This document shows, piece by piece, positions 1-17,306 of a DNA stretch of 17,306 nucleotides. Source of the stretch: a virus (taxonomy: Duplodnaviria; Heunggongvirae; Uroviricota; Caudoviricetes); IMG/VR virus record IMGVR_UViG_3300019888_000209; one strand, given 5' to 3'. Numbering within the stretch: position 1 is the first letter of the stretch; the number at the start of each line of letters is the position of its first letter. The notes under the pieces are model-generated. The model searched no databases. It saw only the letters and a program-made list of their open reading frames with translations, and was not told the origin of the DNA. Both the position numbers and the translations under genes were made by a program.

Positions 1-1113
1 GTGACAGTGAAAAACGAAGCGATGCGCGGCATTTATCGTCGCGGCCAGATTTACTGGCTGAACGCGCAAAAAAATAATAAACGGCAATGGATTTCGCTTC
101 ACACATCGGACCCCGCGGAAGCGATTCGCAAAGCCGCGCGGCATCGACAACAGCCGGAGATTACGAGCGGCGGACTCGTGATCGGGGACGTGATCGAAAG
201 GTTCGTGCGGGAAATGCGTAGCGCTCGCGAGCACGGTTCGCGCAACGGTTGGGCGCGGCGCACGGCTGATTCGAAAATTTATACGCTGCGTATGTTCGCC
301 GGTTTCGTTGGTCGGAAAATTCCCGATCGCGTGACCAGCGGAGACGTTAAAGATTTTTATGGCGAGCGACTTGAAGGCCGAAACGCGCAGACCGCCTACG
401 GCAATTACATGACGCTGCGTAGTTTTTTTAATTGGTGCTCGGACAAGCGGATCGTGCGGGAGAATCCGTGCCTCGCGATCAAAGTGGAAGCGCCGCCACG
501 CGCTGCGCGCAAGAATTTTTGTTCGCCGGAGTTGGTCGCGAAATTGATCGGCGAAGCTCCGCGGCTCGATCTCAAGTACGTCCTCTACTGCGGATTCCAC
601 GCCGGACTGCGATTCCTTGAGATCGTGGAGTCCGTGCCCTGGTGGTTCGATCTGGACCGCGCGAATCTTCATTTGCGCAAAACGCCTACTATAGACTTCA
701 AAGATTTGGAAGAACGAATTGTGCCAATGACGGGCGCGTTCCGAAAGTTCATCGCCGACGAGCACGGATTGCAGGAGCCGTTCATGCTGCACCCCGAGAT
801 CGTGAAGCACCGCAAGAATCGTTACCGCTGGGATTTCACGCGGCCGTTCCGCGAATACATGAAAGCGCAAGAGTGCGAGTGGGTGACGCCACACATCATG
901 CGTCACACGTTCGCGAGTTTGCTGGCTTCGATGGACCCGAAGCTGGGCGGCCCCAGCGATTTCGAAATCTGTAGCTGGATGGGTATCGACTTGCGCACGT
1001 ATCAGCGCACGTATGCCAAGCTGCGACCGCGCCGCGGCGCACTGGATAAGGCGTTTCAAGCGTCAAAGCCTTTCCACCGGTCGAGAGCTGCGTCGATCTC
1101 CGTACGATCGTAA
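1..1113 (+). CDS. int: Tyrosine recombinase / phage integrase
   Basis: N-terminal arm-binding-like segment (GIYRRGQIYW...ISLHTSD), catalytic Arg box (HAGLRFLEI), HxxR box (HIMRHTFAS) and C-terminal Tyr (RTYAKL). The true start may be the ATG at 22, or lie upstream of the window. Confidence 0.93.
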   Translation: MTVKNEAMRGIYRRGQIYWLNAQKNNKRQWISLHTSDPAEAIRKAARHRQQPEITSGGLVIGDVIERFVREMRSAREHGSRNGWARRTADSKIYTLRMFAGFVGRKIPDRVTSGDVKDFYGERLEGRNAQTAYGNYMTLRSFFNWCSDKRIVRENPCLAIKVEAPPRAARKNFCSPELVAKLIGEAPRLDLKYVLYCGFHAGLRFLEIVESVPWWFDLDRANLHLRKTPTIDFKDLEERIVPMTGAFRKFIADEHGLQEPFMLHPEIVKHRKNRYRWDFTRPFREYMKAQECEWVTPHIMRHTFASLLASMDPKLGGPSDFEICSWMGIDLRTYQRTYAKLRPRRGALDKAFQASKPFHRSRAASISVRS

Positions 1114-2877: not shown

Positions 2878-2996
2878 TTTTGTAAGTTTTCTAAATTTGG
2901 AAGAACAGTTCCACATGAAACATATTTCGGTGCCACTCGTCAAATATTTTTAATTTGCTTTTTTAGGAAATCGCCGACCGTCCAACATTCCAAATT
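2878..2996. promoter_or_regulatory. AT-rich divergent control region between the early operon and the repressor
   Basis: Divergent gene starts; visibly AT-rich. TTGACG on the minus strand (2943-2938) with only a weak -10. Inverted repeats: TGGAA-N6-TTCCA (2898-2913), GAAA-N4-TTTC (2917-2928) and AATTTGGAA (2894-2902)/TTCCAAATT (2988-2996). Confidence 0.55.
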
Positions 2997-3485
2997 ATGG
3001 CGTTCCTCGGGAACTATATCGCCAGCGTTATCGCGGCTGAGCGTAAGGCTGGAAAAGACACCACGGCGGCTTCGATGGCCGCACGTATGGGCATTCGCCA
3101 CTCTATGATGTCGCGGTTTCTCAACGACCCGAAGCCGCGCGGCGTGCATCACGAAACGCTGGAAAGAATGTGCCGCGGCATCAGCGACGATCCAATCGTA
3201 CGTGCCGGTCTGCGCATCGCGTATCTCAAAGATCAAATCGGCACCGGACGCGACGCGACCCTGGTGCGCATCGGGCTCGATCGCGAGCCGCGCACGAGCG
3301 AGAGAGATGTCGGCGCGGACGCTTACGCCGCGTTTGCGCAGGTGGCCGAGCGTGTCGGACTGGACGCACAAACTGTAGCCGCTCTTGCGAAAATCATCGA
3401 GGCATCCGCATACTCGATACGCTTTCGCCGATGCGTCCGCGATCTGGCCGATATCGCGCGACAGGACATCCTGCCGCACCGCTAA
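2997..3485 (+). CDS. XRE/Cro-CI family HTH transcriptional regulator, probable repressor (162 aa)
   Basis: TAASMAARMGIRHSMMSRFLN...HHETLERMC is an XRE HTH pattern. Divergent from the early operon. No S24 peptidase domain recognised. Confidence 0.8.
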   Translation: MAFLGNYIASVIAAERKAGKDTTAASMAARMGIRHSMMSRFLNDPKPRGVHHETLERMCRGISDDPIVRAGLRIAYLKDQIGTGRDATLVRIGLDREPRTSERDVGADAYAAFAQVAERVGLDAQTVAALAKIIEASAYSIRFRRCVRDLADIARQDILPHR

Positions 3486-3487: not shown

Positions 3488-4228
3488 TTAGCGCCGCGCC
3501 GCGTAGATCACACCGAACGGAGCGCGTCTCGCTGGCGACGCCCTGGGTCGCGCCGGCTCGACACCATGCTTCGCTATCAGGTAAGGGCGCTCTCGCTGGG
3601 TAAGGTTGCCCTGGACTCTCGACGCGCTCCCATTCCAGTAACGCACCGCAACCAACGGCTCCCGGATGAATTCAGGCGCGCCATATTTCCGGTGCAACAG
3701 CCAGTAATAGTCGCAGTCAAGCCGTGTGCGCAATTGCGTATCGAAGTGAAACTCGTTCCGGCGCGTTGCCATTACCGATGGCATGCCAATGGTGTTATCG
3801 CCGAACAAAATATCATCGCTCCAAGACGGATGATGCGTCCTTCGTAATTGTCCTCGCTCATCCATGCTCGTGTAGCTGGCAACCACCCAATGCGCCCGGC
3901 CCAGGGCTTTCTCGAATCGGCGCAAGGCATACGGACTATAAAGCAGATCGTCCTGATACATTATCTTGATCAGATCCGATTCAGCGCGAGCGATCGCGTT
4001 GTTCGAGTTATTGGAAATCCCGAACGTTTCGTTATTCCGAATGTATCGCAGTTTTAACCGATCAAGGTAAGACGCGCAAAGCTGTTGAATCGCGTTATCA
4101 CGCGAGTTATCGCTCACCACCACTTCGAATTCGGCTTCGCATTGTGACACCAATGAATCGAGTAGCGCCGCGAGATACTTCGCGCCGAATCCGGCTTGTT
4201 CATAGGTGGGGATACAGACGGAAATCAT
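3488..4228 (-). CDS. Glycosyltransferase family 2 (GT-A fold)
   Basis: ISVCIPTYEQ, EVVVSDNS, IRNNETFGISNNSNNAI and IMYQDDLL are typical GT2 motifs. Confidence 0.92.
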   Translation of the reverse strand: MISVCIPTYEQAGFGAKYLAALLDSLVSQCEAEFEVVVSDNSRDNAIQQLCASYLDRLKLRYIRNNETFGISNNSNNAIARAESDLIKIMYQDDLLYSPYALRRFEKALGRAHWVVASYTSMDERGQLRRTHHPSWSDDILFGDNTIGMPSVMATRRNEFHFDTQLRTRLDCDYYWLLHRKYGAPEFIREPLVAVRYWNGSASRVQGNLTQRERPYLIAKHGVEPARPRASPARRAPFGVIYAARR

Positions 4229-4247
4229 TTATCCCGTGAAAGTTTTT

Positions 4248-4319
4248 AATCTGGAAGCCAGGAATCTACGAACCCTCTTACCCTCTTTTCTTTATTCCTG
4301 GTTTCGTGGTTTCCAGATT
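4248..4319. repeat. Imperfect inverted repeat with triple-unit arms (CCAGGAA/CCACGAA type)
   Basis: Left arm 4248-4273 AATCTGGAAGCCAGGAATCTACGAAC. Right arm 4294-4319, reverse complement AATCTGGAAACCACGAAACCAGGAAT. 20/26 match, 8-bp period, 20-nt pyrimidine-rich loop. Confidence 0.9.
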
Positions 4320-4343
4320 TATTCCGTTTCATGATCCGCGCGG

Positions 4344-4943
4344 TTAAATTCTGATAACTCCCAGGCCATAGCTTCCAGTCCTGTTTTCCCACTTCAAGCC
4401 TGTCTCGGCGCAGAACGCTTCCAGCGCCTTTGCCACCATGAAGCTTTCATAGCCTTCGGGATAGCCAGGCAACGCCGGCAATTCCGTATCGTGACAACAC
4501 GCGATCCCGCCGGGATTAACGCGCGGAACATACACGCGCAGTTCGGCCATGGTTTGCTCGTAAAAATGCGTGGTATCGATAAAAAGCATGTCGATCTTGT
4601 CCGGCTGCAGGCGCGCAACCTCCGGATCGAGATCGTCGCCGATGGTCAGACCCCAAATAGGGCTCACAAACCACCACTCAGGCACGCGCGGTTTCTCGAT
4701 ATCCACAGACCACAGATTGCCGCCAGACCGTTCTACCCCAGCCAGCAGCGCCGCGGTAGAAATACCCGATCGCACGCCCAGCTCGAGCACGCTCTTACTT
4801 TTCGCCGCGTGCTCATACAAAAACGGCAGATGCTCCTGGATGTCCGACCACGCAGCCAGCCGCTTTTCGTATTCGGACTGGAAAGAACCGAGAACCACGG
4901 ATGACACGGATGAGACGGATGTTGAATCAAAAGGCGGCTTCAT
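4344..4943 (-). CDS. Class I SAM-dependent methyltransferase (Methyltransf_24-like)
   Basis: VLELGVRSGIST (motif I) and IDMLFIDTTHFYE...VNPGGIACCHDT. Candidate RBS AGGAAG at 4956-4951. Confidence 0.9.
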   Translation of the reverse strand: MKPPFDSTSVSSVSSVVLGSFQSEYEKRLAAWSDIQEHLPFLYEHAAKSKSVLELGVRSGISTAALLAGVERSGGNLWSVDIEKPRVPEWWFVSPIWGLTIGDDLDPEVARLQPDKIDMLFIDTTHFYEQTMAELRVYVPRVNPGGIACCHDTELPALPGYPEGYESFMVAKALEAFCAETGLKWENRTGSYGLGVIRI

Positions 4944-4984
4944 TTTCTTTCTTCCTATCCGTGTTATTCGTGTAATCCGTGGTT
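4893..4984. repeat. Imperfect inverted repeat with triple 9-bp-unit arms (CACGGAT type)
   Basis: Arms 4893-4920 (AACCACGGATGACACGGATGAGACGGAT) and 4957-4984 (reverse complement AACCACGGATTACACGAATAACACGGAT). 24/28 match, 36-nt loop. Confidence 0.92.
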
Positions 4985-4992
4985 ATTCTTTT

Positions 4993-5655
4993 TCATTGCA
5001 CCTTCAGGTGACGATGCATTTTGTAGGTCGGATTATCGTAAAAATCGCCCCACACCATCTCCCTGATTTCAATGCCGAACTGGCGCGCCAGAAAAGGGAA
5101 TGAGTTCTGATCGAATGAGGACCACAGCAGGCACGCGTTCCACCAAGCATCGAAGAAACCGTTCATTTGAGCGTTGATCGGCCGGGCAAACAATCCACAC
5201 CACCAGAGCCCGAAGTCCGCCGGATGCCCGTGCTTCTTGTAAAAGTCGGCTTCGATCCGCATCACTTCGGGCGAATAGCGCGCCGCAAGATATTTGTCGC
5301 CGCTGGCGATTCCATCAACGACGAACGCGGCTTCCTCGTAGATGCAATTCCGGAACGGATGCCGAGCCACGGCGATATCAAATTTGCCGGCGCCAATAAT
5401 CTCCTCGACGAACGAAGGCGCCTTGATCTCCACGTTGGCGTCGATCCATACAACGTGTGTGTAGTGAGCAGGCAGAACCCTGTGCGCCTGGAGCTTGAAG
5501 TATTTGCTCTTCATCCGGGCATCGAGCTGATTAAACGGAAACGGGCAATTTTTCTCGCTGATCGCGAACGAATCGCACGACTCCGACTTCCACGGGAAGC
5601 GACGCGCCTCGTCGATTCCGCCAAATGAAGCTGTCAAAACGGCTATTTTTCCCAT
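4993..5655 (-). CDS. DUF616-like (TOD1/MUCI70 family) putative glycosyltransferase
   Basis: IAVLTASFGGID, KSKYFKLQAHRVL, VVWIDANV, ARHPFRNCIYEEA and AWW...FDQNSF follow the DUF616 motif order. Confidence 0.75.
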   Translation of the reverse strand: MGKIAVLTASFGGIDEARRFPWKSESCDSFAISEKNCPFPFNQLDARMKSKYFKLQAHRVLPAHYTHVVWIDANVEIKAPSFVEEIIGAGKFDIAVARHPFRNCIYEEAAFVVDGIASGDKYLAARYSPEVMRIEADFYKKHGHPADFGLWWCGLFARPINAQMNGFFDAWWNACLLWSSFDQNSFPFLARQFGIEIREMVWGDFYDNPTYKMHRHLKVQ

Positions 5656-5663
5656 TGAGATTT

Positions 5664-5704
5664 AATCTGGACAAGAGGGTTCATGGCTTCCTGGTTTCCA
5701 GATT
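5664..5704. repeat. Reduced member of the CCAGGAA-type inverted repeat family
   Basis: One full triple-unit arm, 5680-5704 (reverse complement AATCTGGAAACCAGGAAGCCATGAA), and a single-unit partner AATCTGGA (5664-5671), giving an 8-bp perfect terminal stem. Confidence 0.85.
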
Positions 5705-6489
5705 CATTTCTCCCACTTCGATTTGTCCGGGAATTGCTTTTCCAGCCAGGTCTTGAAGCCGCCGTTAACCAGTGCGCCATCGCTGTACGAAAAAAGAACG
5801 CGCCCCCTGATCTGGTCCTCGAAAACCCCATCATGGAAGAACCGGATCTTGCAGTCCTGCATGAACGGCCCCGGCGCCGGCAGAAGATTGTTCGCATAGA
5901 CGGAGTGAATCACGAAACCATGCCCGTCCGCGCGGCTGCGCTCCCACCACGGAGCCAGCGCCATATAATCCTTACGCCGATAAACGATCGGAAAATGAAC
6001 GTCGTAATCGAGCGCCGGTTTACCTGCCGCCATCAAGGCCGACGCGGTGGCCCGCAACGAATCACGATAAACCGTCGTCGCCGCAGAATTCGTGGCCGAA
6101 TTGAACAGCGGCCCCTGCTGAAAATAATCGAGAGCCCTGACATCCATCGGCGCGACGAGAACATAATCGTCATCAAAGACGGCTACCTCATCTGCGATGT
6201 CCGTGTTTGCGAAAGCCCAAAGAATCTTCCAAGCAATCCGCGCATCCCTATTTGAGCTAATCTCAGGCAGTCTAACAAGAGCCGATGATCCGTTAAGCCC
6301 GTGAGATATGTCCGCCTTGCGCCCGAAACTCGTTCCCGTGCTTATCTCATGGGCTAAAAATCCCGGATCTTCGCCTACAACAAAGACGCGATCATAGCCA
6401 GTGGCAAACCGATCGATCGATCTCAGGCAATAGCGCAGTTCATTATTCTGCCATCCGGTCTCAGTTCCTAATGGAATCAAAATATCCAT
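5704..6489 (-). CDS. Stealth-like (CR2) putative hexose-1-phosphate transferase
   Basis: ELRYCLRSID (6441-6412), RVFVVGEDPGFL and AVFDDDYVL (6177-6163) match the Stealth CR2 pattern ELRYSLRS...P.WL...F.Y.NDD. A later HFPIVY resembles CR3. Confidence 0.72.
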   Translation of the reverse strand: MDILIPLGTETGWQNNELRYCLRSIDRFATGYDRVFVVGEDPGFLAHEISTGTSFGRKADISHGLNGSSALVRLPEISSNRDARIAWKILWAFANTDIADEVAVFDDDYVLVAPMDVRALDYFQQGPLFNSATNSAATTVYRDSLRATASALMAAGKPALDYDVHFPIVYRRKDYMALAPWWERSRADGHGFVIHSVYANNLLPAPGPFMQDCKIRFFHDGVFEDQIRGRVLFSYSDGALVNGGFKTWLEKQFPDKSKWEK

Positions 6490-6498
6490 CGGAATTTA

Positions 6499-6582
6499 GC
6501 CACGGATTTACACGGATGAACACGGATCCAGATTCGGAATCATGAGTCTCACAATCTTGTGAACTTCGTGAACTTCGTGGTG
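6499..6582. repeat. Chimeric triple-unit inverted repeat (CACGGAT arm facing a CACGAAG arm)
   Basis: 6499-6527 GCCACGGATTTACACGGATGAACACGGAT; 6556-6582 CTTGTGAACTTCGTGAACTTCGTGGTG. Confidence 0.85.
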
Positions 6583-6591
6583 GAAATTCAC

Positions 6592-6936
6592 TTACTCCGA
6601 TGGAAGCGAGAACGCTCCGGTAGGCGGCGTCACCACAAAAGTAAACGTATAAATACGTTTCTGAGTACCGTCCGTTTGCGCGATCGTTTGCTGCTTAATC
6701 ACCATCTTAGCCGTTCTGTTTGCCGACTGCGCCTGCCACGCCACGTTCAATGCCTCACAGAAGGCAAAGACCACGTCCCGGATATCGCCGGTCGTCGCAT
6801 TAGCCTGCGCGTTCGTGAGCTGCTCCAGCAGCTTATTCGTAGATGCGTCATTCGTGTTGAACGTGATCAGTTTATTCGTGTCATCGACGGCGTATCCGGC
6901 GCCGAGCCACGTTGAAGGTTTAAGATCTGCCGCCAT
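6592..6936 (-). CDS. Hypothetical phage protein (114 aa), possibly tail-associated
   Basis: Clean ORF with plausible globular composition, in the same operon downstream of the tail-like genes. Function not recognised. Confidence 0.7.
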   Translation of the reverse strand: MAADLKPSTWLGAGYAVDDTNKLITFNTNDASTNKLLEQLTNAQANATTGDIRDVVFAFCEALNVAWQAQSANRTAKMVIKQQTIAQTDGTQKRIYTFTFVVTPPTGAFSLPSE

Positions 6937-6961
6937 CGCTTGCTTTGTCTTTCATAATTAT

Positions 6962-8041
6962 TCAGCCTTTGCAAGCTTTTTCGCGCGTCATCTGCCCGTC
7001 GTTCGCTTCCGCGAACTTCTCGCCGTCCGCCTGTTGGTACCACGGCCGCGGCTCGATGCGCAAGTGACCGACGCATTCCGAGTCCTTCGATTCGTGATAT
7101 GCCTGGCAGAGAATGAATTTGCCTTTTCGTTTGGGATCACGAATCACATGGTCGCAGGGCGAATGCGGAATGACATTGATCCGCAGGCTGGCGCGGTACC
7201 AACGTTTCCAGACCACGTACAGATCTTCGGTGCCGCTGCCATCATAACCGTCGAACTGCGCCAGTGAAAGAGCGCGCTTGTTCATCAGCGTGCATCCGAA
7301 CCCGCACCAATCGCTTGGAACAACTGCGCCTATGCCGATTTCTGGATACGCTGCATGCATCCAACCCCGGCGCCGGAAGCCTTTGGAGTTGCAGAAGAAG
7401 ACGTTACCAATCGGCTTACATTGCTGGACCGCTTTCGACAATTCCTGGTATTGCTGCTTCCATTTTGCGTCAGGTTGACCCTTTAATTTCTTCAGGCGCG
7501 CCTGATGTTGATCGATTTTCTTTTTTAAATCCTCCGGAATCTCGCGTTCATCATCGTAGAAATCTGGAAGGATCGGTCGCTCCGGAATACCGCGCCCGCC
7601 GAGGAACGCGCCGCCACCCTGACTAGGATAAGGACAAGTCGAAACCGAATAAAAGCCGTCATCAAACTCCAGCATTTGTTTCATTACCCTCAGAGCATTC
7701 GGCTGTGGTAACACGTCACTATCAAGGCTCCAGCAGAGATCGGCCTGTAGCTGACGTGCGCGGTCAAAGGCGATCGATCTCATCCGGGCGATGATCAACT
7801 GAGCCGCATTTTTATAGTTCGGCAGGCCATCTTCATATTTGCCAGTGAAAAGCTCTACTGAGCTTTCGGCAGGTAGAACCGATTCGTAAAACTTTCTGGC
7901 CTTCTGTATCTCAGGTGAATTGTCGCCGACTAGAATTACCACAGCCCTGGGCTCACGCTCGATACACGCGACAATCTTACGCGCCTGCGCGATAAGTGCA
8001 TACGCATAAGACCGCGTCGAACAAATGGTAACAGCGATCAT
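6962..8041 (-). CDS. GT-A fold glycosyltransferase (GT2/Anp1-like)
   Basis: DxD motif (WSLDSDVL), SDWCGFGCTL and GTEDL, plus a C-terminal PCDH. ATGA overlap with the upstream gene. Confidence 0.75.
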   Translation of the reverse strand: MIAVTICSTRSYAYALIAQARKIVACIEREPRAVVILVGDNSPEIQKARKFYESVLPAESSVELFTGKYEDGLPNYKNAAQLIIARMRSIAFDRARQLQADLCWSLDSDVLPQPNALRVMKQMLEFDDGFYSVSTCPYPSQGGGAFLGGRGIPERPILPDFYDDEREIPEDLKKKIDQHQARLKKLKGQPDAKWKQQYQELSKAVQQCKPIGNVFFCNSKGFRRRGWMHAAYPEIGIGAVVPSDWCGFGCTLMNKRALSLAQFDGYDGSGTEDLYVVWKRWYRASLRINVIPHSPCDHVIRDPKRKGKFILCQAYHESKDSECVGHLRIEPRPWYQQADGEKFAEANDGQMTREKACKG

Positions 8042-10239
8042 ATCGCCACCCAGGTACCCCCTCCAGTATGGGCATGAACGACGAAAGCGTCACAAACTAA
8101 ATTACCGCCTATCACAGAAAACTGTTTGATGGAACGGTGTAGCATCAGTTTATCCGTAGACAGCGCAGTAGTAGTTCCGTTTCCATAATCCGTGGTTCCG
8201 GACGTGGTCGCATCCCATGTTTGCCATATGCCGGAAACGCAAAGTGTTTGCATGTTTGAGTCGGCCGTAAACGCGCGTGGCCTGCCTCCAACCACGCTCT
8301 CAAAATAGCTGGTCACTGAAGAAGCAAGCCCACCGCCGCTGGTAATCTGTGGAACTGTCGTCCCGGCGCTCATAATGGAGTACGTAAAACTGGACGTCTC
8401 CGTGCTATCGGACGCAATTGCATGCAGCCATGTAACTGATATGATCGGGTTAACAGGGCTGCTATTCCATTCTATCTGCCATGTTGTCGGCTCGTTGGTC
8501 GAGGTTACGCCCCTGTAAGTAAACGAACTCGTCCCAGTGCCGTCCGTCGCAGACGTGCCGCCGTTGTAAACGCATTGATATGGAACGCTGACGCTGCTGC
8601 CAGTTCCCGCGAACGCACCTAAAAATAGAAAACTAGGGAACGGAATAGATGCCGGAGCGCCACCGCCGCTTGCGCTCAGACCTAAATAAACGGGATCAGT
8701 CGCAGAAACAGACGGTTGGATCTGGAACCCTTGAAACGCTGGAACGAAAGTTAACAATGAAGCCGCCGCTTGCTGGAGGGAAAAGAGCCCTGGTAAACCA
8801 AACGTCCTCGTAGAGGTAAATCCGTTTACCGTGTTGTTGTGTATCGTATGATCATTGAAAGCTGTTCCTGATCCAACAGCACTACTAAAACTTCCCGAAG
8901 CAGCAAAGCCTATACCAGTATCACTAATAGCTTTTGTTTCACTTGCGGTTGTTGCGATAAATGAATCCGTTGAAAAGAAGCTCGATGTCCCACGGTCTGA
9001 TCCAGTCCATGTTATGAGTTTACCGGTGGTAAAGGAGCCAAGTTTAGGGCTCGAAGACGTTGTGGCTCCAAATGCACCGAACGTAGAAACACTTGTGCCC
9101 ACGGACGGGAGCGAGGAATTTACTGTGTGCGTTCCCACGAAAGAAGAGTACGTGTAGGTCTTGGAAGCCGATGACATGGGTAGTAATCCAACTGCATAAC
9201 TGGAGTAAGTCGTGATCCAACGTGTTAAGTCCAAGTCAGTTGATGCCGTACTCAGAGAAGTCGCATATTCGAATGATGCCGAGAAGCTCGATGTTGCAGC
9301 TGAGGTCGAGCCACTGGCAACAACTGGGTACACAACTACTATTGAACTCGTTCCGAGAGGATACAATGTTACTTCTCCGGTGGCACTTTCGAATAAATCC
9401 GAGAACTCATAACTTGACCACAGGAATTCGCCCGCATCGGTCCCAGGAGCAAATGTAAATAGTATGTCATTACGAACGGCGTCGAATTCTGGCACGAGCA
9501 CGGTTCGAAGAGCATAGGATTCCCCCAAGCCACGAAAGGTGGATGTGGACAACACGGCCACAGTATACGTTTCTGACGAGTCTGTAAATATTGTTGAAGT
9601 TATATTGTCCGAAACAATGACTGTTGTCGGAATGGTTGAATCCGTGTCTGTCGAATTCGTGGTCGTGTGGGTTCCGGCATAAAACGTATGCGTACCCGTA
9701 GAAGTTGATGTTGAAGATCCGAACAACGTCGATGTTATAGCCAAGGTCGTGTCTGAATGATAAGTGGGTGAGACAATAGATCCGGAAAACGAGCCCGTAT
9801 TAGAAGTGAACCCCGAGGTGCCTGGGCTACTAGAATATGCTGCGTAGAGAGTATTCCCACCACTTACTGTACCAGCCGTCCAATTAACAACAGTCTCTGA
9901 GGACAGACTTTGGATTGTCGAGCCATAAGAGGTGGCCGTTCCGGTACCGCCTCCGCCCTCCGTAAATGAACTTCCGTAATGGGTTGACCCGTTTTCATTT
10001 AGAACAGCCCAAGCATTTTGGTTTCCATTAAACCAAGCATGATCGTTTCTGCTAAAGTTATTAGACACAAAGGAGCTGGAATAAAAAGACAAACCTTGTG
10101 CCGATTCCATGTAATTCCCAGATGCATTATAGGTTCCGGTTCCACCGATCTCTACATCAGTAGTGTGGCCTTCGTCCGAACCCGTGCTAGAATGACCAGC
10201 GTAGTTGCTATAAATATAACCCTGAACACAGGCAATCAT
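8038..10239 (-). CDS. Ser/Thr/Gly-rich 733-aa protein, putative tail fibre/receptor-binding or virion surface protein
   Basis: Long ORF directly after the baseplate-hub-like gene. Very rich in Ser/Thr/Gly with few Lys/Arg and no signal peptide. The fibre role is inferred from position. Confidence 0.6.
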   Translation of the reverse strand: MIACVQGYIYSNYAGHSSTGSDEGHTTDVEIGGTGTYNASGNYMESAQGLSFYSSSFVSNNFSRNDHAWFNGNQNAWAVLNENGSTHYGSSFTEGGGGTGTATSYGSTIQSLSSETVVNWTAGTVSGGNTLYAAYSSSPGTSGFTSNTGSFSGSIVSPTYHSDTTLAITSTLFGSSTSTSTGTHTFYAGTHTTTNSTDTDSTIPTTVIVSDNITSTIFTDSSETYTVAVLSTSTFRGLGESYALRTVLVPEFDAVRNDILFTFAPGTDAGEFLWSSYEFSDLFESATGEVTLYPLGTSSIVVVYPVVASGSTSAATSSFSASFEYATSLSTASTDLDLTRWITTYSSYAVGLLPMSSASKTYTYSSFVGTHTVNSSLPSVGTSVSTFGAFGATTSSSPKLGSFTTGKLITWTGSDRGTSSFFSTDSFIATTASETKAISDTGIGFAASGSFSSAVGSGTAFNDHTIHNNTVNGFTSTRTFGLPGLFSLQQAAASLLTFVPAFQGFQIQPSVSATDPVYLGLSASGGGAPASIPFPSFLFLGAFAGTGSSVSVPYQCVYNGGTSATDGTGTSSFTYRGVTSTNEPTTWQIEWNSSPVNPIISVTWLHAIASDSTETSSFTYSIMSAGTTVPQITSGGGLASSVTSYFESVVGGRPRAFTADSNMQTLCVSGIWQTWDATTSGTTDYGNGTTTALSTDKLMLHRSIKQFSVIGGNLVCDAFVVHAHTGGGTWVAI

Positions 10240-10241
10240 GG

Positions 10242-12944
10242 TTACAAAGACGCGATTTCCCAGGTGTAGTATGTGTCGTAATATGGTTCCCCGGGGACAA
10301 GCGGTGAGCGTAGTGCTTGAACACCTGCCAGCGTGGTCGCTTCCAGAACGTTCATGATTAACTGGAAAGGAATTGTATCAACAATAACGCCTAGCAAAAG
10401 AGAAACGTTTTCAGGGGCCACGTTAAGATCGTAATCAATTGGATCAGGCGGTACGTCACTATTCCCGTCGATAACAGCATTCGTAAGCGACACCCCGTCA
10501 CTTGTGCAATCCAGAGTCACATAATAAGTGCCAGTTGCAGCGATAGCCCAATCGCTAAACATATTCGATGGAATAATCTGGTTGATCGTTCCCGGCGCCA
10601 CTTTCACTCGATAGTCTGGTGCTTCCGATGTGCCAAGGTTCACTACCGTGATTTCCCACGGAAACGCTCTCTCTGCTGCACCGCCGAGCTGCACCATCGC
10701 GAGAACGGTTTGACTGCCAGGATAACTCTGGCTCACCACGCGGCCTAACTGCATCGCGCCGCCTACCTTCGCTGTCTGCCCTGAGCCCTTGTCGATGCCA
10801 ATGCTGTCATTGGACTTGAACGGACCCTTCACCCGCACAGGCACGATGCCTTGCGTGGCGCAATTGACCAGGCTCGTCGATTGATCAGCAATAACAATAC
10901 CAGCGAAGTGTTCGCCGGTCGGACCAGGGTGACCATCCGCGCCGAGAAAGATAGGTTGCCCGGCCAGCCAGATATCCGACGAATAAATCTTCGCCACCGA
11001 ACAGTCAGGCGCGCCCACCGGTTTTTCCATAAAATGCGCCAGTGAGCCATATACAGGTTCCAGCGGCGACCGCTTCAGTTCCTTCGACACCTTGGCGATC
11101 AGATCTAGCTCTTTCGATTCGTCTTTTAATTTACGCTGCCCCGGGAACAAATCCTTGGCGCGCTGCTTACGCTCCAGGTCGCGTTCGGCTTCAAAGTTAC
11201 TTTGTGAACGTTCCTTGCTATACTCGACCCGTTCAGTAATCCCTTGGTCGAATGTTAAGCGCACAGTGACGCGGTCAATGGCGCCTGTTAGCGCAGTGCC
11301 ACTGGCGCCGTTCCGAGTGAAACCACCAGCTACGTAGAATTCCTCCTGCGCGGTAAGCGAATTAACGATTAATGTCGCTTTTTGATCGGCGGTATAAAAA
11401 TCGGCGTAAACAATCTCCGTTCCGTCCGCCAGGACGTGTTCGCACAGGCCAGGAACGTAATGCGATCCATGGCGAGCGCCGTCGCCGAATAGCTTCTGGT
11501 ACCGATCTGCGTCCCATACCAGGGCCGCGCGGACCGGCGCATCTTCAATGGTCGCATCTGCATTTGGGACCGCGATCGCTTTTAGCGAGTCAGGAGCGTC
11601 GGTGCTGGCGTTAGGGAAAATAACAAGATCGGTAGAAACGAACACTGCATCCTGAAAAATAATGGTCTTGTTACGCACATCCAGGTTGAACCTGTTGTTA
11701 GCGGTGAACTCAGCGGCCTCGCGATCCAATTCTGCCTGGGTAAGCACCCGCTGCTTCGTTGGATCAACTAGCCCGAGTGGTTGGCCCTTGACTATCAGGA
11801 ACACTTTTGCATCCGGATAGAGTTGGGACGGGTCTTCAGTCATTGCGCCGCCGAGATCGTAATTGATCGCGCATAATAGACCTTCAATGAGGTCTAGCGA
11901 ATCGCGCGGGAACGCGCCTACTTCAGTGTCCAGGATGTAATCGAGTGGCACCCTGTAAGCCTTGAAAACAATGTCATGAAGATAAGTCCAAACCGGTATC
12001 TCCATGCGTCCCACTTCGCCCCACATTCCATAGTCCGCGTAGCCAGCCCCCCATGCTGTCACTAACTCGCGCACAGTGAAGGTGCGCATTTTAGAAGCCA
12101 GCTCAGCCGATTGAGTAAAATCGTTCGGATCAAGCCCAAGGATGCCGGAAAGGTCCGCCTGCCAATCCGCCTCAAGCCAGAAATCCTCGTAGTTGGCATT
12201 CCAACCTGGCTCCAGATCAACCTCAAGATCCTGATAACGGTTCTTGTCACCTACCACAGTAATTTTGGTATCGTTCGCAGACACGGCTTCGCCGTCAGAG
12301 ATATCGCTCGTGCTTGCCGGATCATAAGCCGGAATGTCGCCGCCGCCCTTACGCGCCCACAATAACGTGCTATCTCCTACCAAGGTAAATAACAAGCCTT
12401 GCGCATCCGAGATTTCCTGTAGGACGCTGCCGAGCTTCTTACCGGTCATCGCGTCGATCTCGTGAATTTCCAGTTCCTGCGCCTCGTAGAAGCTGCCCGT
12501 CCATGAATTCACTACGGTCGGCGCGTCCAGGCAGTACTGAATTATCTGATGCGCCGTTAACGGATCATTAGTATAAGTCTTTAACTGGTGCTCCCAGTTA
12601 TCCGGCAAGATATGCATGTACCGTTTCTGCCGATCGATTCCGGGCGTGAGCGGATTGTGTTCGCGCACTTCCACTCTGTTAAATAAGCCAAATACTACGT
12701 CCCACATCAGCTTGACGCGCATGTCCACGAATGAGATCCGGGTATGCGTTCCGTCCTGCGTGTCGTCCGTAAACTGAGTTAGAACACCGTAGTACGAATC
12801 AGCGCCGAGCGTCAGTATGTAATCGCCGCCCACCGTCAGGCCACTCGCGCCAACAGCAGTGATACTCGCCGCGCCAGGGGAAAGCCCCCAGGCGCGCGTA
12901 AACTCCATATCGGCTATAACAGCGCCACCTATTGAGTACGGCAC
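10242..12944 (-). CDS. Putative tail-tip/baseplate hub protein (900 aa) with additional C-terminal domains
   Basis: N-terminal beta-rich region followed by GKKLGSVLQEISDAQGLLFTL...LLWARKG, reminiscent of gp27/late-control-D-like hub proteins. GTG start immediately follows an in-frame TAA. Confidence 0.55.
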   Translation of the reverse strand: MPYSIGGAVIADMEFTRAWGLSPGAASITAVGASGLTVGGDYILTLGADSYYGVLTQFTDDTQDGTHTRISFVDMRVKLMWDVVFGLFNRVEVREHNPLTPGIDRQKRYMHILPDNWEHQLKTYTNDPLTAHQIIQYCLDAPTVVNSWTGSFYEAQELEIHEIDAMTGKKLGSVLQEISDAQGLLFTLVGDSTLLWARKGGGDIPAYDPASTSDISDGEAVSANDTKITVVGDKNRYQDLEVDLEPGWNANYEDFWLEADWQADLSGILGLDPNDFTQSAELASKMRTFTVRELVTAWGAGYADYGMWGEVGRMEIPVWTYLHDIVFKAYRVPLDYILDTEVGAFPRDSLDLIEGLLCAINYDLGGAMTEDPSQLYPDAKVFLIVKGQPLGLVDPTKQRVLTQAELDREAAEFTANNRFNLDVRNKTIIFQDAVFVSTDLVIFPNASTDAPDSLKAIAVPNADATIEDAPVRAALVWDADRYQKLFGDGARHGSHYVPGLCEHVLADGTEIVYADFYTADQKATLIVNSLTAQEEFYVAGGFTRNGASGTALTGAIDRVTVRLTFDQGITERVEYSKERSQSNFEAERDLERKQRAKDLFPGQRKLKDESKELDLIAKVSKELKRSPLEPVYGSLAHFMEKPVGAPDCSVAKIYSSDIWLAGQPIFLGADGHPGPTGEHFAGIVIADQSTSLVNCATQGIVPVRVKGPFKSNDSIGIDKGSGQTAKVGGAMQLGRVVSQSYPGSQTVLAMVQLGGAAERAFPWEITVVNLGTSEAPDYRVKVAPGTINQIIPSNMFSDWAIAATGTYYVTLDCTSDGVSLTNAVIDGNSDVPPDPIDYDLNVAPENVSLLLGVIVDTIPFQLIMNVLEATTLAGVQALRSPLVPGEPYYDTYYTWEIASL

Positions 12945-12960
12945 TTACTTAGAAAAATTA

Positions 12961-13095
12961 GCCACAGATAAAAAAGAGTCGGGGAATCTGGAAGCCAGGA
13001 ACCCTGTTTCCCTGAAAAGAAAATTCCTGGTTTCGTGGTTTCCAGATAACAAATGCCTTTTCCGAATCCGTGTTTCATCCGTGTTAATCCGTGGC
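12961..13095. repeat. Nested inverted repeats: CACGGAT-type outer pair enclosing a CCAGGAA-type inner pair
   Basis: Outer: GCCACAGAT (12961-12969) and ATCCGTGTTTCATCCGTGTTAATCCGTGGC (13066-13095). Inner: AATCTGGAAGCCAGGAA (12985-13001) and ATTCCTGGTTTCGTGGTTTCCAGAT (13023-13047). Confidence 0.92.
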
Positions 13096-13740
13096 CTGTT
13101 TGGGTACAGCTACCAGCGCAACCGGACCGTCTCGCTTCGATGCGATTAACTCCACAAAATCTACACCCATCAGATCAACGTCGTTTCGGCTTGGCTCGAT
13201 ATTCGTTACCTTCACTCCAAGGCCAGGTCGTAACAGAAAATCGAAAGGACGATCGATTTGAGCAGGCGGCCCGGAAGCCAGAGCTTCCATTTCTGTTTCG
13301 ACTTGTTGCCCAGCTCCAACCTCGATCTCTTCCCGAAGCTTGTAGGAACAACCCATCCCGTCCACGACTGCGTGCATCGTCATTCCTTTAAGAAAGTGCA
13401 CCGCTTTCTTCTCGGATGAGATCACAAACCTGCACAACGATCGTACGAACTTCGCGGCAAGCGCGCGTTCCCATGTTTCGCCGGCGCTGATATCGGCTTG
13501 CACCAGAGCGCCAGGTGCATGCGACTGAACGTTCAGGCTGAGCCACGCTCGTCTTGATTTCCTGATCGACTGCCACTCCTCCCACTGGCCCGTGTTCTTG
13601 TCGCCAAACCGTAATCGCACTTCATAAAGAGCGGGCTCGCCCGCCGTAGCCTCGGGCGAAGGCGGGTCCCATTGCAGCCAGACGTGCGTCCCGTCCCACG
13701 CTCCAACGATGCGCGCATTTAACATAGGTATGGCAGACAT
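13084..13740 (-). CDS. Putative virion protein: FN3/Ig-like N-terminus plus baseplate-J-like beta segment (218 aa)
   Basis: VWLQWDPP...ALYEVRLR is an FN3-like pattern. YKLREEIEVGAGQQVETEMEALASG...GVKVTNIEP resembles the barrel of baseplate J-like proteins. Confidence 0.5.
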   Translation of the reverse strand: MSAIPMLNARIVGAWDGTHVWLQWDPPSPEATAGEPALYEVRLRFGDKNTGQWEEWQSIRKSRRAWLSLNVQSHAPGALVQADISAGETWERALAAKFVRSLCRFVISSEKKAVHFLKGMTMHAVVDGMGCSYKLREEIEVGAGQQVETEMEALASGPPAQIDRPFDFLLRPGLGVKVTNIEPSRNDVDLMGVDFVELIASKRDGPVALVAVPKQATD

Positions 13741-13769: not shown

Positions 13770-14111
13770 TTAACTCGCCGTTGATGGTGCCGTGGTTGCA
13801 GCAGCCTGAACTGCTGGCGGAGTCGCAGCCGACACTGTTGCCGGAAGCGAACTCGCGCTTTGATTAGGTGCTGGTGCCACACTCGCGACAGCCTGCACGT
13901 CTGCGGGCGTAGGCGGGACAACCGCCGCGATCTGATTGACGGCCGAATTGATCTGCGCCACATCAGCATCCGTGAGTTGAACGGATGTCTTCAGTTGCGC
14001 CTGGAGATCGGCTATCTGGCCTTTCAACGTCGCAATCTGAGCCACGTTATCGCTGTCGGTATGTACCAACGCGACAAACGCTGCCACCAATTGAATGATT
14101 AGGTTTCTCAT
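13770..14111 (-). CDS. Hypothetical protein (113 aa): hydrophobic N-terminus, short coiled coil, Pro/Ala/Thr/Ser-rich tail
   Basis: Start reassigned to ATG 14111 because of a strong RBS (AAAGGAG) just upstream. First gene of the leftward operon. Confidence 0.7.
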   Translation of the reverse strand: MRNLIIQLVAAFVALVHTDSDNVAQIATLKGQIADLQAQLKTSVQLTDADVAQINSAVNQIAAVVPPTPADVQAVASVAPAPNQSASSLPATVSAATPPAVQAAATTAPSTAS

Positions 14112-14210
14112 TTTGTGCTCCTTTCGTTTTTTTGGTTTCTTTGTTTTCATTACCGTAAGACACATCGCTATCGCATCGCTGCTTGTCTTTCAATGAAAAT
14201 CCGTTTTCGA

Positions 14211-14256: not shown

Positions 14257-14472
14257 ATGCCAAGCCAGGCCATCAACGGAGCAAACTATCTATCAGCGCC
14301 GCAGATCGCGCGCGCACTCGGGCGCAATCCCGTGAGCATTTATCGCGTGATCAAACGCAAACGGATTACAGCCGCTATCGAGCTTAACGGCTTTAAGTTC
14401 TACTCGTGCGCCGTAAAAGCGAAGATCGAGAAGTCGATGCGCCGCAGAAACGGTCACAAGAACGGAGATTGA
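14257..14472 (+). CDS. HTH DNA-binding protein (HTH_17/MerR-like, 71 aa)
   Basis: YLSAPQIARALGRNPVSIYRVIKRKRI is an HTH pattern. Lies directly upstream of the primase-helicase. Confidence 0.8.
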   Translation: MPSQAINGANYLSAPQIARALGRNPVSIYRVIKRKRITAAIELNGFKFYSCAVKAKIEKSMRRRNGHKNGD

Positions 14473-14476
14473 CCGC

Positions 14477-17306
14477 GTGACTTATCCTCCCCACATCTGG
14501 CAAGCTGCCTTTCAGGCGTTGCCACTGCCTCGCTTGATGACTCATCTAGGAGATGGTCACCATGGCAAAAAAAATGCGGAGTGTCCATTCTGCCAGGCCA
14601 AGGGCGGCACGTGGAGCGTTTACGAGAAGAACGGCCGCTACCTCTTCAAGTGCCACAACGCTAAACCCGTCTGTGTAGCAAACGAGACCGCGCCGGACGT
14701 GGGCCATGGCGAGATTGGGTATCTCGTGCTCCGGAAAGGCTACAGCGTGGACGAGGCCAAGGAGGAATATCTCAATCTGGCCGTGCCGCACCTGCTCGAA
14801 GAATTTCATCGCAAGCAGAGAAAGGAAGGTGATATAAAACGAACCAATGCACCTGTAGCAATCCAATCGCAGGAGTCCACGAGCGATTCTGCCCAGCACT
14901 TGGTAAGTAACGCCGCGCCGACCGTTCAAACCGCAGGCGCGGCGCCCAAAGAACCGTCCGATCTTTCTGTGCCGCCTAATCCCCCAAAGCCGCCCGCGGA
15001 GCTGCCTGCCGAGCCGCCACCAGATCAGCCGCTCGTTTGGGACGCGCTCTGGCGCAGGCTCGTGCTCACACCGCGTGACAGAACAAAGCTCATGCAGCAG
15101 CGCGGTTTCTCGGAAGAGACGATCAAGATTCTCGGATTCAAGTCGAACAACCAATCGAATCTCGTCCACCTAAAGTCGCTCACAGACGACTACCCGATGG
15201 AGCTTTTACTGGCCGAAGGCATCTACAAAATTTATCGGGACGGCCCCGGACCAAACCGGCAGCTTTATGGATGGGGACTCAAGCGCAAAGCACGAAAGGA
15301 AGGCGACGACGATACCTGGGATTGGGTCGAACCGATTCTCATTCCCTACCTTACAGCGAGCGGGGCATGCTCATACCTGCGCCCGCACAAGGGCGGAGTT
15401 TCTGGCGAACGGCGCGAAGATGAGGACGACGAGGAAGCGTCTTGCTCGGCGCACGTTTATAGCCCGTTTCTGTTATCCAACACGGCGGCGACAATCGAGG
15501 GCACCGCGATTCTGTGCGAGGGCGAATTCAAAGCCGCTGCGGTTTACCAGTGCGGCATACCCTCACTGGCGATTCCAGGGATTAGCTTTGTTCGTAACCG
15601 CGCGTTCCGCGAGGAACTGCTCGCGCTTATTCGCACGTTCGGCGTCACCGATTTGATAATTTGCTTCGACAATGAAATCAAAGACGACCCGGCTTTTCCC
15701 GACCGCTACAAGCCAGATCCCACCGACAGGTATGACACCCAAATGTGGGCCGAGTACATCGCGATTGATCTAACGCGTGAGTATTTCGGACCAAACAAGG
15801 GCCGCGTCACGATCGGCATCCTTCCGGATAATCTACACGAGAACGGAAAAGCCGATTTCGATTCAGCTCTCTCTTACTTCGTCCGACAGCAGCGCGACGT
15901 CACGCGCGGCACCAATTCCGCACGCAAAATTTTCAAGAGCGTCATCGACGATGCGCGCCCACATCGTCAGGCCCGAGAACTTTTCCCGAGCGAATCGCGC
16001 CGCATCATTGAGTGGAAACTGCAACGGCTCTTCTATAAACCACTCGTTCCTTCCGGTGGCGAGAAAGAGCTGCGGCTTGCTAATCAATACAAGGCGATCG
16101 GTGAACACGATCTCTCGAAAGCTTACCGCTCCATTGTCGGCTGCTACTACCAGCGCGTTAAACCTGAGCGCGACCAAATAAAAATGCTCCTGGAAGCCGC
16201 GCGTAAGTCGGATGGCCTTGTCGATAACGCTAAGGCCGCGGGAGTAAACGGCAGCGAGCTTCGTAAGCTCCGCTTGAACGCGCGAGCAGCCTGGGATCAC
16301 GTGAAAGGCGCGCCCGAGCCCGTCTCGGATTTCGTGCTTACTTGCGAATTTAAGCTTCACACCAGCGATCAAAAAGCCATCCGCCTGGTCAAGATTCGCA
16401 ACCGGAATGACTCCGGCAAATCAGAAGGCCGCCTTTTGCGCCTCACAGGCGCTGAAATGGCGCGCGGTCCGGAGTTCATGCGCTGGTGTTACGACACCGG
16501 CCACGCTTGCTGGAAAGGCGGCCAACGGTTGCTCTCGCATCTGTGCGAAGACATGGATCACCACTCATACCTGCGCGACATCTTCGAGATAAATTACTAC
16601 GGTTATCACGCCGAGTCCGGCATCTGGTTCTTCGGCGATTGCGCGTTTGGACCAAACGGCGATCGCATCGAGGCCGACAAGAACAACATCTTTTGGAACG
16701 CCGGCATCGGATATCAGATTGATTCATCCATTGAAGACCGAGGCACCACTTTCGAGCAAGGCGCGCCGCTTATGCTCTCCCCGCACGGCGCCGTCGCGAA
16801 GGACGCCAAAGTCGATGTCGGTGAGTTACTCCAAGATCTCTGCCACGATATGCTCTTAACAATTGGCGGATACGACGCATGGTTCATGCTGGGCCTGGTC
16901 TTCGCTTACGCCGCGTCGCCCGAGCTGTTCACAAAGTTTGGTGGCCATCCGAGCATTTGGCTGGCTGGTATCACTTCGGAAGGTAAGACCACCATCGCCC
17001 GCTGGATCATGCGCGTCTGGGGTTTTAAACATTTGACGGGAATCCGTATCAATAAAGGCACAACGCACGTCGCAATGAACCGCAACCTCGCGCAATACTC
17101 ATGCTTGCCCGTTTGGTTCGACGAATATCGCAAAACCGAGATAGATCCCGACAAGGAAGCCGTTCTCCGCGGTGCTTTCGATCGCAACTCCGCTTCGAAA
17201 GGCTTAATGGATCACAGCAATCGCACGCGCAGCGCCCGATTGTTTACCACGCCCATCGTCAGCGGCGAATCCAGCTCGAGTGACGGCGCAACGCGCTCAC
17301 GCTACG
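14477..17306 (+). CDS. Zn-finger/TOPRIM primase fused to a P-loop helicase; 3'-truncated by the window edge (>=943 aa)
   Basis: Translated by hand: the frame is open from GTG 14477 to the window end. CPFC-x19-CHNAKPVC (14582-14674), TOPRIM EGEFK (15518-15532) with a later FDNE/DFD, Walker A GITSEGKT (16967-16990) and Walker B VWFDE (17111-17125). Confidence 0.9.
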   Translation, partial: MTYPPHIWQAAFQALPLPRLMTHLGDGHHGKKNAECPFCQAKGGTWSVYEKNGRYLFKCHNAKPVCVANETAPDVGHGEIGYLVLRKGYSVDEAKEEYLNLAVPHLLEEFHRKQRKEGDIKRTNAPVAIQSQESTSDSAQHLVSNAAPTVQTAGAAPKEPSDLSVPPNPPKPPAELPAEPPPDQPLVWDALWRRLVLTPRDRTKLMQQRGFSEETIKILGFKSNNQSNLVHLKSLTDDYPMELLLAEGIYKIYRDGPGPNRQLYGWGLKRKARKEGDDDTWDWVEPILIPYLTASGACSYLRPHKGGVSGERREDEDDEEASCSAHVYSPFLLSNTAATIEGTAILCEGEFKAAAVYQCGIPSLAIPGISFVRNRAFREELLALIRTFGVTDLIICFDNEIKDDPAFPDRYKPDPTDRYDTQMWAEYIAIDLTREYFGPNKGRVTIGILPDNLHENGKADFDSALSYFVRQQRDVTRGTNSARKIFKSVIDDARPHRQARELFPSESRRIIEWKLQRLFYKPLVPSGGEKELRLANQYKAIGEHDLSKAYRSIVGCYYQRVKPERDQIKMLLEAARKSDGLVDNAKAAGVNGSELRKLRLNARAAWDHVKGAPEPVSDFVLTCEFKLHTSDQKAIRLVKIRNRNDSGKSEGRLLRLTGAEMARGPEFMRWCYDTGHACWKGGQRLLSHLCEDMDHHSYLRDIFEINYYGYHAESGIWFFGDCAFGPNGDRIEADKNNIFWNAGIGYQIDSSIEDRGTTFEQGAPLMLSPHGAVAKDAKVDVGELLQDLCHDMLLTIGGYDAWFMLGLVFAYAASPELFTKFGGHPSIWLAGITSEGKTTIARWIMRVWGFKHLTGIRINKGTTHVAMNRNLAQYSCLPVWFDEYRKTEIDPDKEAVLRGAFDRNSASKGLMDHSNRTRSARLFTTPIVSGESSSSDGATRSRY

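Follow-up and report, generated by a model that had tools for sequence, protein, structure and literature searches.

Can a phage-like element build a glycan with enzymes of its own, and on which molecule would it put it? This question is raised by a stretch of 17,306 nucleotides (nt; the window, below) from the IMG/VR virus record IMGVR_UViG_3300019888_000209, assigned to the Caudoviricetes, in which a run of minus-strand genes lies between a plus-strand tyrosine integrase gene and a plus-strand helix-turn-helix (HTH)/primase-helicase region (Table 1). An analysis of the letters alone (the original prediction) had placed five co-oriented enzyme genes at the end of a putative tail operon in this run, and proposed that they form one pathway modifying a virion protein. 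All five open reading frames exist on the minus strand, and the family calls hold: Pfam recognizes glycosyltransferase family 2 (GT2), Methyltransf_24 and TOD1/MUCI70, a profile match to GNPTAB identifies the Stealth-like protein, and the glycosyltransferase (GT) of the GT-A fold is known by its structural model and DxD motif. The location at the end of a tail operon is likewise borne out by the product of the gene two places upstream, which models as a tail hub. A single five-enzyme pathway, however, is not what we find. The window holds a fibre-coupled GT-A enzyme and, separately, an accessory four-gene cassette that is found in none of seven sampled relatives of the element. On comparative grounds, the best reading is that these enzymes glycosylate one or more virion proteins, and we regard it as modestly probable.

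Table 1. Features of the window discussed in the text (aa, amino acids; SAM, S-adenosylmethionine; Tal, tail-associated lysin; pLDDT, predicted local distance difference test)
Feature	Position	Strand	Remarks
Tyrosine integrase	1-1113	+	
162-aa conserved gene	2997-3485	+	Kept in L004 and L005; convergent with the GT2 gene, ends 2 nt from its stop
GT2-family glycosyltransferase, 246 aa	3488-4228	-	Last gene of the operon
Motif A hairpin (AATCTGGAAGCCAGGAA and complement)	4248-4319		5' of GT2; copies at 5673-5705 (5' of TOD1) and 12984-13047 (5' of hub)
Class I SAM methyltransferase, 199 aa	4344-4943	-	Methyltransf_24
TOD1/MUCI70 (former DUF616) glycosyltransferase-like protein, 220 aa	4993-5655	-	PF04765
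Short Stealth-type putative sugar-1-phosphate transferase, 261 aa	5704-6489	-	phrog_7999, E 2.5e-18
Motif B (CACGGAT units)	6499-6527		5' of Stealth-like gene; copies at 4893-4984 (around methyltransferase start) and 13066-13095 (5' of hub)
114-aa conserved protein	6592-6936	-	Between GT-A and Stealth-like gene, separating the two glycan modules
GT-A-fold DxD glycosyltransferase, 359 aa	6962-8041	-	Start overlaps fibre gene by 4 nt (8038-8041)
Hypervariable fibre-like protein, 733 aa, proposed glycan acceptor	8038-10239	-	33% Ser+Thr, 2% Lys+Arg
Tail hub (gp27/VgrG/Tal-like), 900 aa	10242-12944	-	Two genes 5' of GT-A; model pLDDT 76
218-aa conserved protein, suspected tail-tip role	13084-13740	-	5' of hub; conserved in L002-L006
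HTH gene and DUF3854/DUF927 primase-helicase	14257-17305	+	

The GT-A protein has no match in Pfam, PHROG, NCBIfam or the PDB sequences, and its identity comes from an alignment of 39 sequences, with members down to 47% identity, on which both the conservation analysis and an AlphaFold2 model (pLDDT 94.5) were based. The model matched GT-A enzymes in Foldseek at E 3e-10 and superposed on COLGALT1 with a VIA Z of 19.9 (root-mean-square deviation 3.3 Å over 246 residues); Mnn9, WrtF, K4CP, TarS and others followed at Z 16–18. With many GT-A families tied at Z 16–20 and no sequence match, the protein has no specific CAZy family placement. Residues D107, S108, T271, E272, D273, H298 and H326 are invariant in the 39 sequences and D109 of the DxD motif is nearly so, a pattern typical of a metal-dependent active site. 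The family is a large, unnamed phage family: 523 relatives were found at E ≤ 0.001 among scored candidates, the one at rank 120 still being about 50% identical, and none of the best 120 of the 523 has a Pfam domain.

The gene neighbourhood of this family points to the virion. For the analysis of synteny, 41 IMG/VR loci were used together with L009, a contig of 69 kb that has a tape-measure gene and a GT-A homologue; the counts below refer to 34 non-redundant loci. A protein was called fibre-like if it had at least 380 aa, at least 24% Ser+Thr and at most 9% Lys+Arg. The gene directly 5' of GT-A was of this kind in 28 of the 34 loci; in the background, made up of 328 other genes with products of 150 aa or more, 13 were (Fisher test, 4e-26, a value that overstates independence because the GT-A loci are related). 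These upstream proteins range from 380 to 900 aa and contain 24–43% Ser+Thr and at most 9% Lys+Arg; as in the window, the end of the fibre gene often shares 4 nt (ATGA) with the beginning of GT-A. They are often preceded by a protein of about 200 aa homologous to the last 180 or so residues of the window's tail hub. The single sampled relative of the element that has a GT-A gene, L006, carries it behind a Ser/Thr-rich (33%) protein too. L253, the contig of the phage whose GT-A homologue is closest, holds at 9973-12986 a second fibre-plus-GT pair: another fibre-like protein, of 633 aa (faint collagen match, 23% Ser+Thr), followed by a GT-B enzyme (Glycos_transf_1).

A search of 1.84 billion representative proteins gave just two relatives of the window's 733-aa protein. 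Both of them share 27–28% identity with it, whereas the GT-A that follows with a 4-nt overlap is 82–85% identical and the adaptor that precedes is 50–53% identical. Neither the window's protein nor ten Ser/Thr-rich fibre-like proteins had a match in Pfam or PHROG scans, phmmer and BLAST comparisons of the 733-aa protein with other Ser/Thr-rich proteins returned almost nothing, so that these proteins are mutually unrecognizable, and the model of the window's protein in the Atlas is too poor to be used (pLDDT 0.23). Its composition, with 11% Gly and 12% aromatic residues, suits a beta-rich fibre; as it has no tandem repeats and its Ser and Thr residues are spread throughout, it is not mucin-like. 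A conserved GT-A enzyme beside a neighbour that is hypervariable in sequence and constrained in composition would fit an enzyme that reads Ser/Thr composition and not sequence. The fibre gene has a GC content at third codon positions (GC3) of 0.46, clearly below the 0.58–0.69 of its neighbours, which fits recent exchange or a different selection on this gene.

Tight coupling to a fibre gene is also a property of chaperones, and the 359-aa protein might be a fibre assembly factor or a virion component that merely has a GT-A-like fold and does not act on the fibre as an enzyme. Accessory non-catalytic GT-like domains (LH3 residues 297–540) are among its top structural matches, and L009 and L011 carry a tail-fibre-assembly-like gene of 121 aa 3' of GT-A. 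However, D107 and S108 of the DxD motif and the five further residues are invariant across the 39 sequences, D109 being nearly so, and a chaperone of a hypervariable partner would be expected to vary along with it. We give this explanation little credence.

The tail context itself is furnished by the 900-aa protein. Its model matched, at Foldseek E values of 1.5e-5 to 1e-3, spikes of extracellular contractile injection systems (eCIS) and Photorhabdus virulence cassettes (PVC), Mu gp44, the Neisseria tail protein 3d37, the monocin tip and the Tal of phage NF5, and the Atlas leads agree. Thirty-seven relatives were found in 5.8 billion clusters. There was no family match in Pfam or PHROG, no match of the hub profile to PDB sequences, and none of the protein by tblastn to phage records and IMG/VR. 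According to the model, the protein folds as a tail hub of the gp27/VgrG/Tal type, so the description 'tail genes' is right for the hub. Residues 719–897, a C-terminal domain of about 180 aa, match separate proteins of about 200 aa encoded 5' of the Ser/Thr-rich gene in many viral loci. Within the model, roughly at residues 640–740, an internal beta domain of about 120 aa resembles capsid decoration or cement proteins (HFTV1 8qsy, Pam3, T1) and the phi29 head-fibre base, with template modelling scores of 0.5–0.6 by target.

Beyond the GT-A gene and a small conserved gene lies the four-gene cassette, and its least familiar member is the Stealth-like protein. As a single sequence it stays under the Pfam cut-off (19.9 bits against 39.4 for Stealth_CR2, PF11380). 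We collected 31 relatives of about 240 aa, of which 29 were aligned, and all 29 match PF11380 (best 7e-12). The family profile finds the catalytic domain of GNPTAB (7s6n, E 6.7e-15), Drosophila GNPT (7dxi, 2e-11) and Mycobacterium tuberculosis CpsY (8j2n, 1e-6). Its alignment to 7s6n spans conserved regions (CR) 2 and 3 at positions 10–170 and pairs 'dvHvPii' with 'aHMPHMi' of GNPTAB; H165 is invariant. The window protein has the CR2 motifs NNELRYCLRS and FDDDY, the latter being FNDDY in the family consensus. None of the 29 members matches CR1 and one matches CR4 (E 0.0056), with a sub-threshold stretch that aligns the C-terminal FP..S.WE with GNPTAB. A metagenome scan returned no Stealth-like relative above 34% identity. 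The profile evidence indicates that the 261-aa protein is a real but minimal Stealth relative with a putative transferase activity.

The three other enzymes are recognized directly. The TOD1-like protein matches PF04765 (E 3.4e-8, 33.6 bits against a cut-off of 21.4) at profile positions 140–231 of 314 only, matches phrog_26101 'glycosyltransferase' (E 1.9e-6) and is 41–44% identical to its homologues in phage cassettes, those of L054 and L249 belonging to PF04765 too. The methyltransferase (PF13578, E 3.4e-14, 54 bits against 26.3) is 69% identical to that of the L249 cassette, which itself has a weak match to RMNT_CmcI (rhamnosyl O-methyltransferase); judged by these relatives, it is probably a sugar O-methyltransferase. 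The GT2 protein (PF00535, E 9e-16, 58.7 bits against 23.3) shares 60% identity with its counterpart in L054 and 53% with the one in L249, each of which belongs to a post-capsid cassette of a phage, and its residues D93 and D94 are invariant in a three-sequence alignment (A5). None of the five enzymes of the window has a membrane segment (maximum 19-residue hydropathy 0.90–1.38), and in GC3 they agree with the remainder of the element. We found no flippase, polymerase, export or sugar-nucleotide gene among the window proteins, in agreement with the claim that sugar-nucleotide synthesis and export genes are missing here.

Where the cassette occurs in other phages, it sits in the head module. The closest Stealth-like homologues (39–49% identity) lie, in all seven readable contexts, directly 3' of the major capsid gene or of the gene in its position in a siphophage head module. 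Locus L249 has a GpA terminase, a portal and a protease–capsid fusion gene and then Stealth, TOD1, Methyltransf_24 and GT2 genes in the order of the window, with identities to it of 46, 43, 69 and 53%, respectively. A JGI contig has a portal gene, an S49 protease gene, a gene for a protein of about 360 aa in the capsid position and a small gene before the same four families, again in this order. In L054, Stealth, TOD1 and GT2 genes with 4-nt overlaps are placed between a phrog_283 head protein gene and connector genes, a tape-measure gene being downstream. The post-capsid place of the Stealth-like gene is unchanged in L053, L250/251 and L247, where the other enzymes are swapped for an RGP-type GT, a GT-B or another methyltransferase. 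In total, 223 IMG/VR stretches encode Stealth-like relatives, and a terminase, portal, protease or capsid gene is found within six genes in at least 23 of 68 non-redundant Stealth-like loci, a count made from a few seeds and therefore a lower bound. TOD1-like genes occur in 32 viral contigs, trios of TOD1, methyltransferase and GT2 genes among them. At 8720-9984 of L066, DNA-methyltransferase-like and DNA-polymerase-exonuclease-like genes lie between the Stealth-like gene and the TOD1/GT2 genes. We conclude from these comparisons that the cassette is a mobile four-gene unit that is accessory in this element.

The two sets of enzymes have different distributions. GT-A is present in one of the seven sampled relatives of the element and the cassette in none, and the 44 GT-A loci contain no homologue of the window-type cassette apart from one methyltransferase match in L042. 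These are two modules of separate origin and not one pathway by descent. Co-occurrence of the five genes with Ser/Thr-rich fibres across phage genomes had been named as a check by the original prediction; it holds for GT-A, in the 28 loci described above, but not for the closest Stealth-like homologues, which lie beside the capsid and never beside a fibre in their seven contexts. The same observations would be accounted for if GT-A served the fibre and the cassette were independent cargo with the capsid as its normal acceptor, acting here on the capsid of a helper phage or being non-functional baggage. However, no helper phage is known, and sequence motifs common to the hub and cassette junctions argue that the cassette has been integrated in the element's own regulation. 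We consider such a division of targets unlikely.

These motifs lie in the spacers of the operon, whose gaps counted from the hub gene are 2 (hub to fibre), -4, 25, 102, 48, 49 and 115 nt. Each cassette gene and the hub gene are preceded by motif A or B, one copy enclosing the methyltransferase start codon, and neither motif recurs elsewhere in the window, in its flanks or in the 2.96 Mb of other loci that were fetched. The hairpins have no proper U-tract, and a scan of the operon for consensus promoters and terminators gave counts below shuffle expectation, which speak neither for nor against co-transcription. Shared motifs lend weak support to a common regulation of the hub and cassette genes; they would fit co-regulation, and a single transcript is not thereby proven.

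The place of the cassette also bears on an explanation in which the host and not the particle is modified. The cassette, and possibly GT-A, could alter lipopolysaccharide, capsule or exopolysaccharide in the lysogen or during infection and thus, like a moron, mask a receptor against superinfection or change the surface otherwise. Bacterial Stealth proteins are capsule or exopolysaccharide phosphotransferases, and the match of our profile to CpsY is of this kind; the GT2 protein has weak partial matches to exopolysaccharide, O-antigen and teichuronic-acid enzymes and to phrog_841 'GtrB-like O-antigen conversion'. The original prediction held that a late-operon position argues against lysogenic conversion. 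The layout found here weakens this argument: the cassette is at the far end of the operon beside a repressor-like gene and with hairpins in its spacers, where morons sit too, and its absence from the sampled relatives is what one would expect of accessory cargo. Lack of membrane segments is also common in cytoplasmic-face enzymes acting on lipid-linked sugars. However, a GtrA-type flippase, a membrane GT, a polymerase, a ligase and an acyl/lipid-carrier-initiating transferase are all missing from the window. The cassettes of real phages lie inside the head operon, flanked by capsid and connector genes and with stops that overlap starts, and not at an attachment-site end. Moreover, a receptor-matched enzyme would be expected to co-vary with the adjacent receptor-binding candidate, whereas GT-A remains 82–85% identical where the latter drops to 27%. 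Modification of the host surface therefore appears doubtful to us, and it still competes with the virion as target, for which the fibre synteny of GT-A, the post-capsid homologues of the cassette and the solubility of the enzymes speak.

Hypermodification of the element's DNA, by glycosylation or otherwise, to evade restriction is hardly credible. Hypermodification of DNA by phage GTs is on record (Pyle et al. 2024, as cited in PMC12619734), and the methyltransferase has a weak partial match to phrog_2675 'DNA methyltransferase' (E 7e-6). However, the vicinity has no gene for a hydroxymethylase, a deoxynucleoside monophosphate kinase or base modification, the enzyme genes belong to structural operons and not to replication modules, and the methyltransferase is of the Methyltransf_24 family, whose RMNT_CmcI-like relatives are sugar O-methyltransferases.

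What kind of element carries these genes matters for the choice of acceptor. Its relatives were located in metagenome-assembled genomes (MAGs) of Spartobacteria, Chthoniobacterales, Verrucomicrobiae and Luteolibacter, and one fragment in an Acidobacteria bin. The primase, the HTH gene, the 218-aa protein, the hub, a 272-aa protein and two genes beyond the primase are common to most of them, and an integrase homologue was recovered in L002 only. The element appears as an integrative unit of about 15–20 kb in Verrucomicrobiota MAGs, with an integrase, the 272-aa protein, a repressor-like gene, the hub, variable fibre genes, the primase-helicase and the two further conserved genes. Neither Pfam nor PHROGs revealed capsid, portal, terminase, tail tube or tape-measure genes in the window, and Pfam showed none among the genes called in L001 or those shared with L002–L008 either, about 9 kb of contig beyond L001 being outside this view. 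The term 'phage-encoded' is thus loose: it is backed by the integrase, primase-helicase and tail-tip genes, not by any recognizable head, tube or tape-measure gene. It is perhaps a satellite equipped with a tail tip of its own. A search with the whole window of phage and plasmid DNA records gave no match, and scans of the window and seven related loci found no tRNA genes, hence no attachment site is defined.

Several smaller genes complete the picture. The 114-aa protein between the two modules has no match in Pfam, PHROG or NCBIfam and shares 51% identity with a protein of 113 aa at the equivalent place in L002, the closest relative, which keeps this gene but lacks all five enzymes. The 218-aa protein has weak Atlas leads to FN3/Ig-like tail-tip domains. 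Further upstream is the gene of a 131-aa protein (13770-14165, minus strand) whose N-terminus is basic, whose middle resembles a coiled coil and whose C-terminal third is rich in Pro, Ala, Thr and Ser; it also contains one hydrophobic stretch and is possibly another O-glycan acceptor, or an envelope-acting protein. A minus-strand reading frame at 2940-3479 was dropped from the operon, as the overlapping plus-strand 162-aa gene is the one conserved in relatives.

Several points weigh against glycosylation of the virion. The structural matches of GT-A to GT-A enzymes are all tied at Z 16–20, and non-catalytic GT-like domains are among the closest matches. The tail fibres of these phages are often Ser/Thr-rich anyway, so that the composition may mark a fibre and not a glycan acceptor. 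The capsid, the usual neighbour of the cassette, is absent from an element without recognizable head genes, and the capsid proteins of L053 and L054 have no Ser/Thr-rich extension like that of the mycobacteriophage acceptors. The mixed genes in the post-capsid stretch of L066 imply that this site may be a general cargo hot spot. Finally, hairpin-bearing spacers of 48–115 nt between the cassette genes, beside a repressor-like gene, are a typical moron position.

If glycosylation of the virion is nonetheless correct, two separate cytoplasmic modules at the distal end of the tail-tip operon would be at work. In the first, GT-A would O-glycosylate the Ser/Thr-rich fibre before assembly, using a host nucleotide sugar. 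In the second, the Stealth enzyme, the TOD1/MUCI70-like GT, the methyltransferase and the GT2 enzyme would build or extend a glycan on a virion protein, with a sugar-1-phosphate (phosphodiester) link made by the Stealth enzyme and O-methyl groups in addition. The cassette would have been appended behind the fibre module in this element, under hairpin motifs like those of the hub gene. The phosphodiester and the methyl cap, which the original prediction had also named, are read from the family names of the enzymes, and we infer the acceptor and the timing of expression. A bolder extension, which we put forward tentatively, is that the 359-aa GT-A family is a dedicated tail-fibre O-glycosyltransferase that reads Ser/Thr composition and is widespread in environmental phages, and that the element is a capsid-less, satellite-like inhabitant of Verrucomicrobiota that carries its own glycosylated tail tip and a borrowed capsid-type cassette to re-equip the particles of helper phages.

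Glycosylated phage particles have so far been documented mainly for a few mycobacteriophages. The general idea of virion glycosylation is already known; new here are a GT-A family coupled to fibres, the occurrence of short Stealth enzymes within structural operons of phages and the union of both in a tail-tip-only element of Verrucomicrobiota. Full-text literature searches returned no paper on these gene families in phages. If the GT-A family, with more than 500 proteins and no annotation, glycosylates fibres, sugar-coated receptor-binding proteins would be common in environmental phages. This would bear on host recognition, protease resistance and the evasion of antibodies or defence systems, and the reading of fibre sequences in host-range prediction would be affected. 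With the short Stealth-type enzymes of phage head operons, the known range of glycans made by viruses would grow to include phosphodiester-linked sugars. Two candidate enzyme–substrate pairs emerge: the fibre with GT-A, and the capsid with the post-capsid cassette.

How do these modules compare with known systems? The nearest is the virion glycosylation of Mycobacterium phages, in which glycans are found on capsid and tail-tube subunits (Freeman et al. 2023, as cited in PMC12619734). There, as in the window, genes for soluble GTs lie in or beside structural genes, some with methyltransferases, and glycans are added to virion proteins in the cytoplasm with host sugar donors, as we propose here; the hosts there are Actinobacteria, whereas our element is found in Verrucomicrobiota, and the acceptors described are the C-terminal ends of capsid and tail-tube subunits, whereas the candidate here is a whole Ser/Thr-rich fibre. 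The GT genes lie within a structural operon in both of our settings, behind the hub and fibre genes in the window and, for the homologous cassettes, behind the capsid gene in siphophages. To our knowledge, no Stealth-type or TOD1/MUCI70-type enzyme has been reported in mycobacteriophage glycosylation.

Phage seroconversion modules (gtrABC, O-antigen acetylases and glucosylases) resemble the cassette as accessory cargo of the GT2 type on a temperate element, the weak 'GtrB-like' phrog_841 match included. Unlike gtrABC, the window encodes neither a GtrA flippase nor GtrC and lacks the membrane-anchored C-terminus of GtrB; its five enzymes are all soluble, and the homologous cassettes are inside head operons. 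In the serine-rich repeat adhesins of Gram-positive bacteria, the gene for a Ser/Thr-rich surface protein lies beside a dedicated cytoplasmic initiating GT (GtfA/GtfB), and further GTs extend the glycan ahead of export or assembly. GtfA/B are GT-B enzymes, and their repetitive substrate is secreted by accessory Sec, whereas the candidate acceptor here is non-repetitive and would enter the tail. In chlorovirus PBCV-1, virus-encoded GTs with a methyltransferase domain (e.g. A064R) build a methylated capsid glycan in the cytoplasm without the secretory route of the host. This is a eukaryotic giant virus with atypical N-linked glycans on its capsid and no Stealth-type enzyme.

The Stealth family itself, with GNPTAB, the Neisseria capsule polymerases and CpsY, offers a further parallel. 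CR2 and CR3 align, including the ELRYxLRS, NDD-type and HxP motifs, whereas the phage proteins are short (about 240–260 against 320–1200 aa), with CR1 not detected and CR4 faint; the window protein has FDDD for NDD, is soluble, belongs to a group encoded in phage head or tail operons and has a putative activity. GNPTAB adds GlcNAc-1-phosphate to glycans already present on proteins, and this is the kind of step that we propose for the second module.

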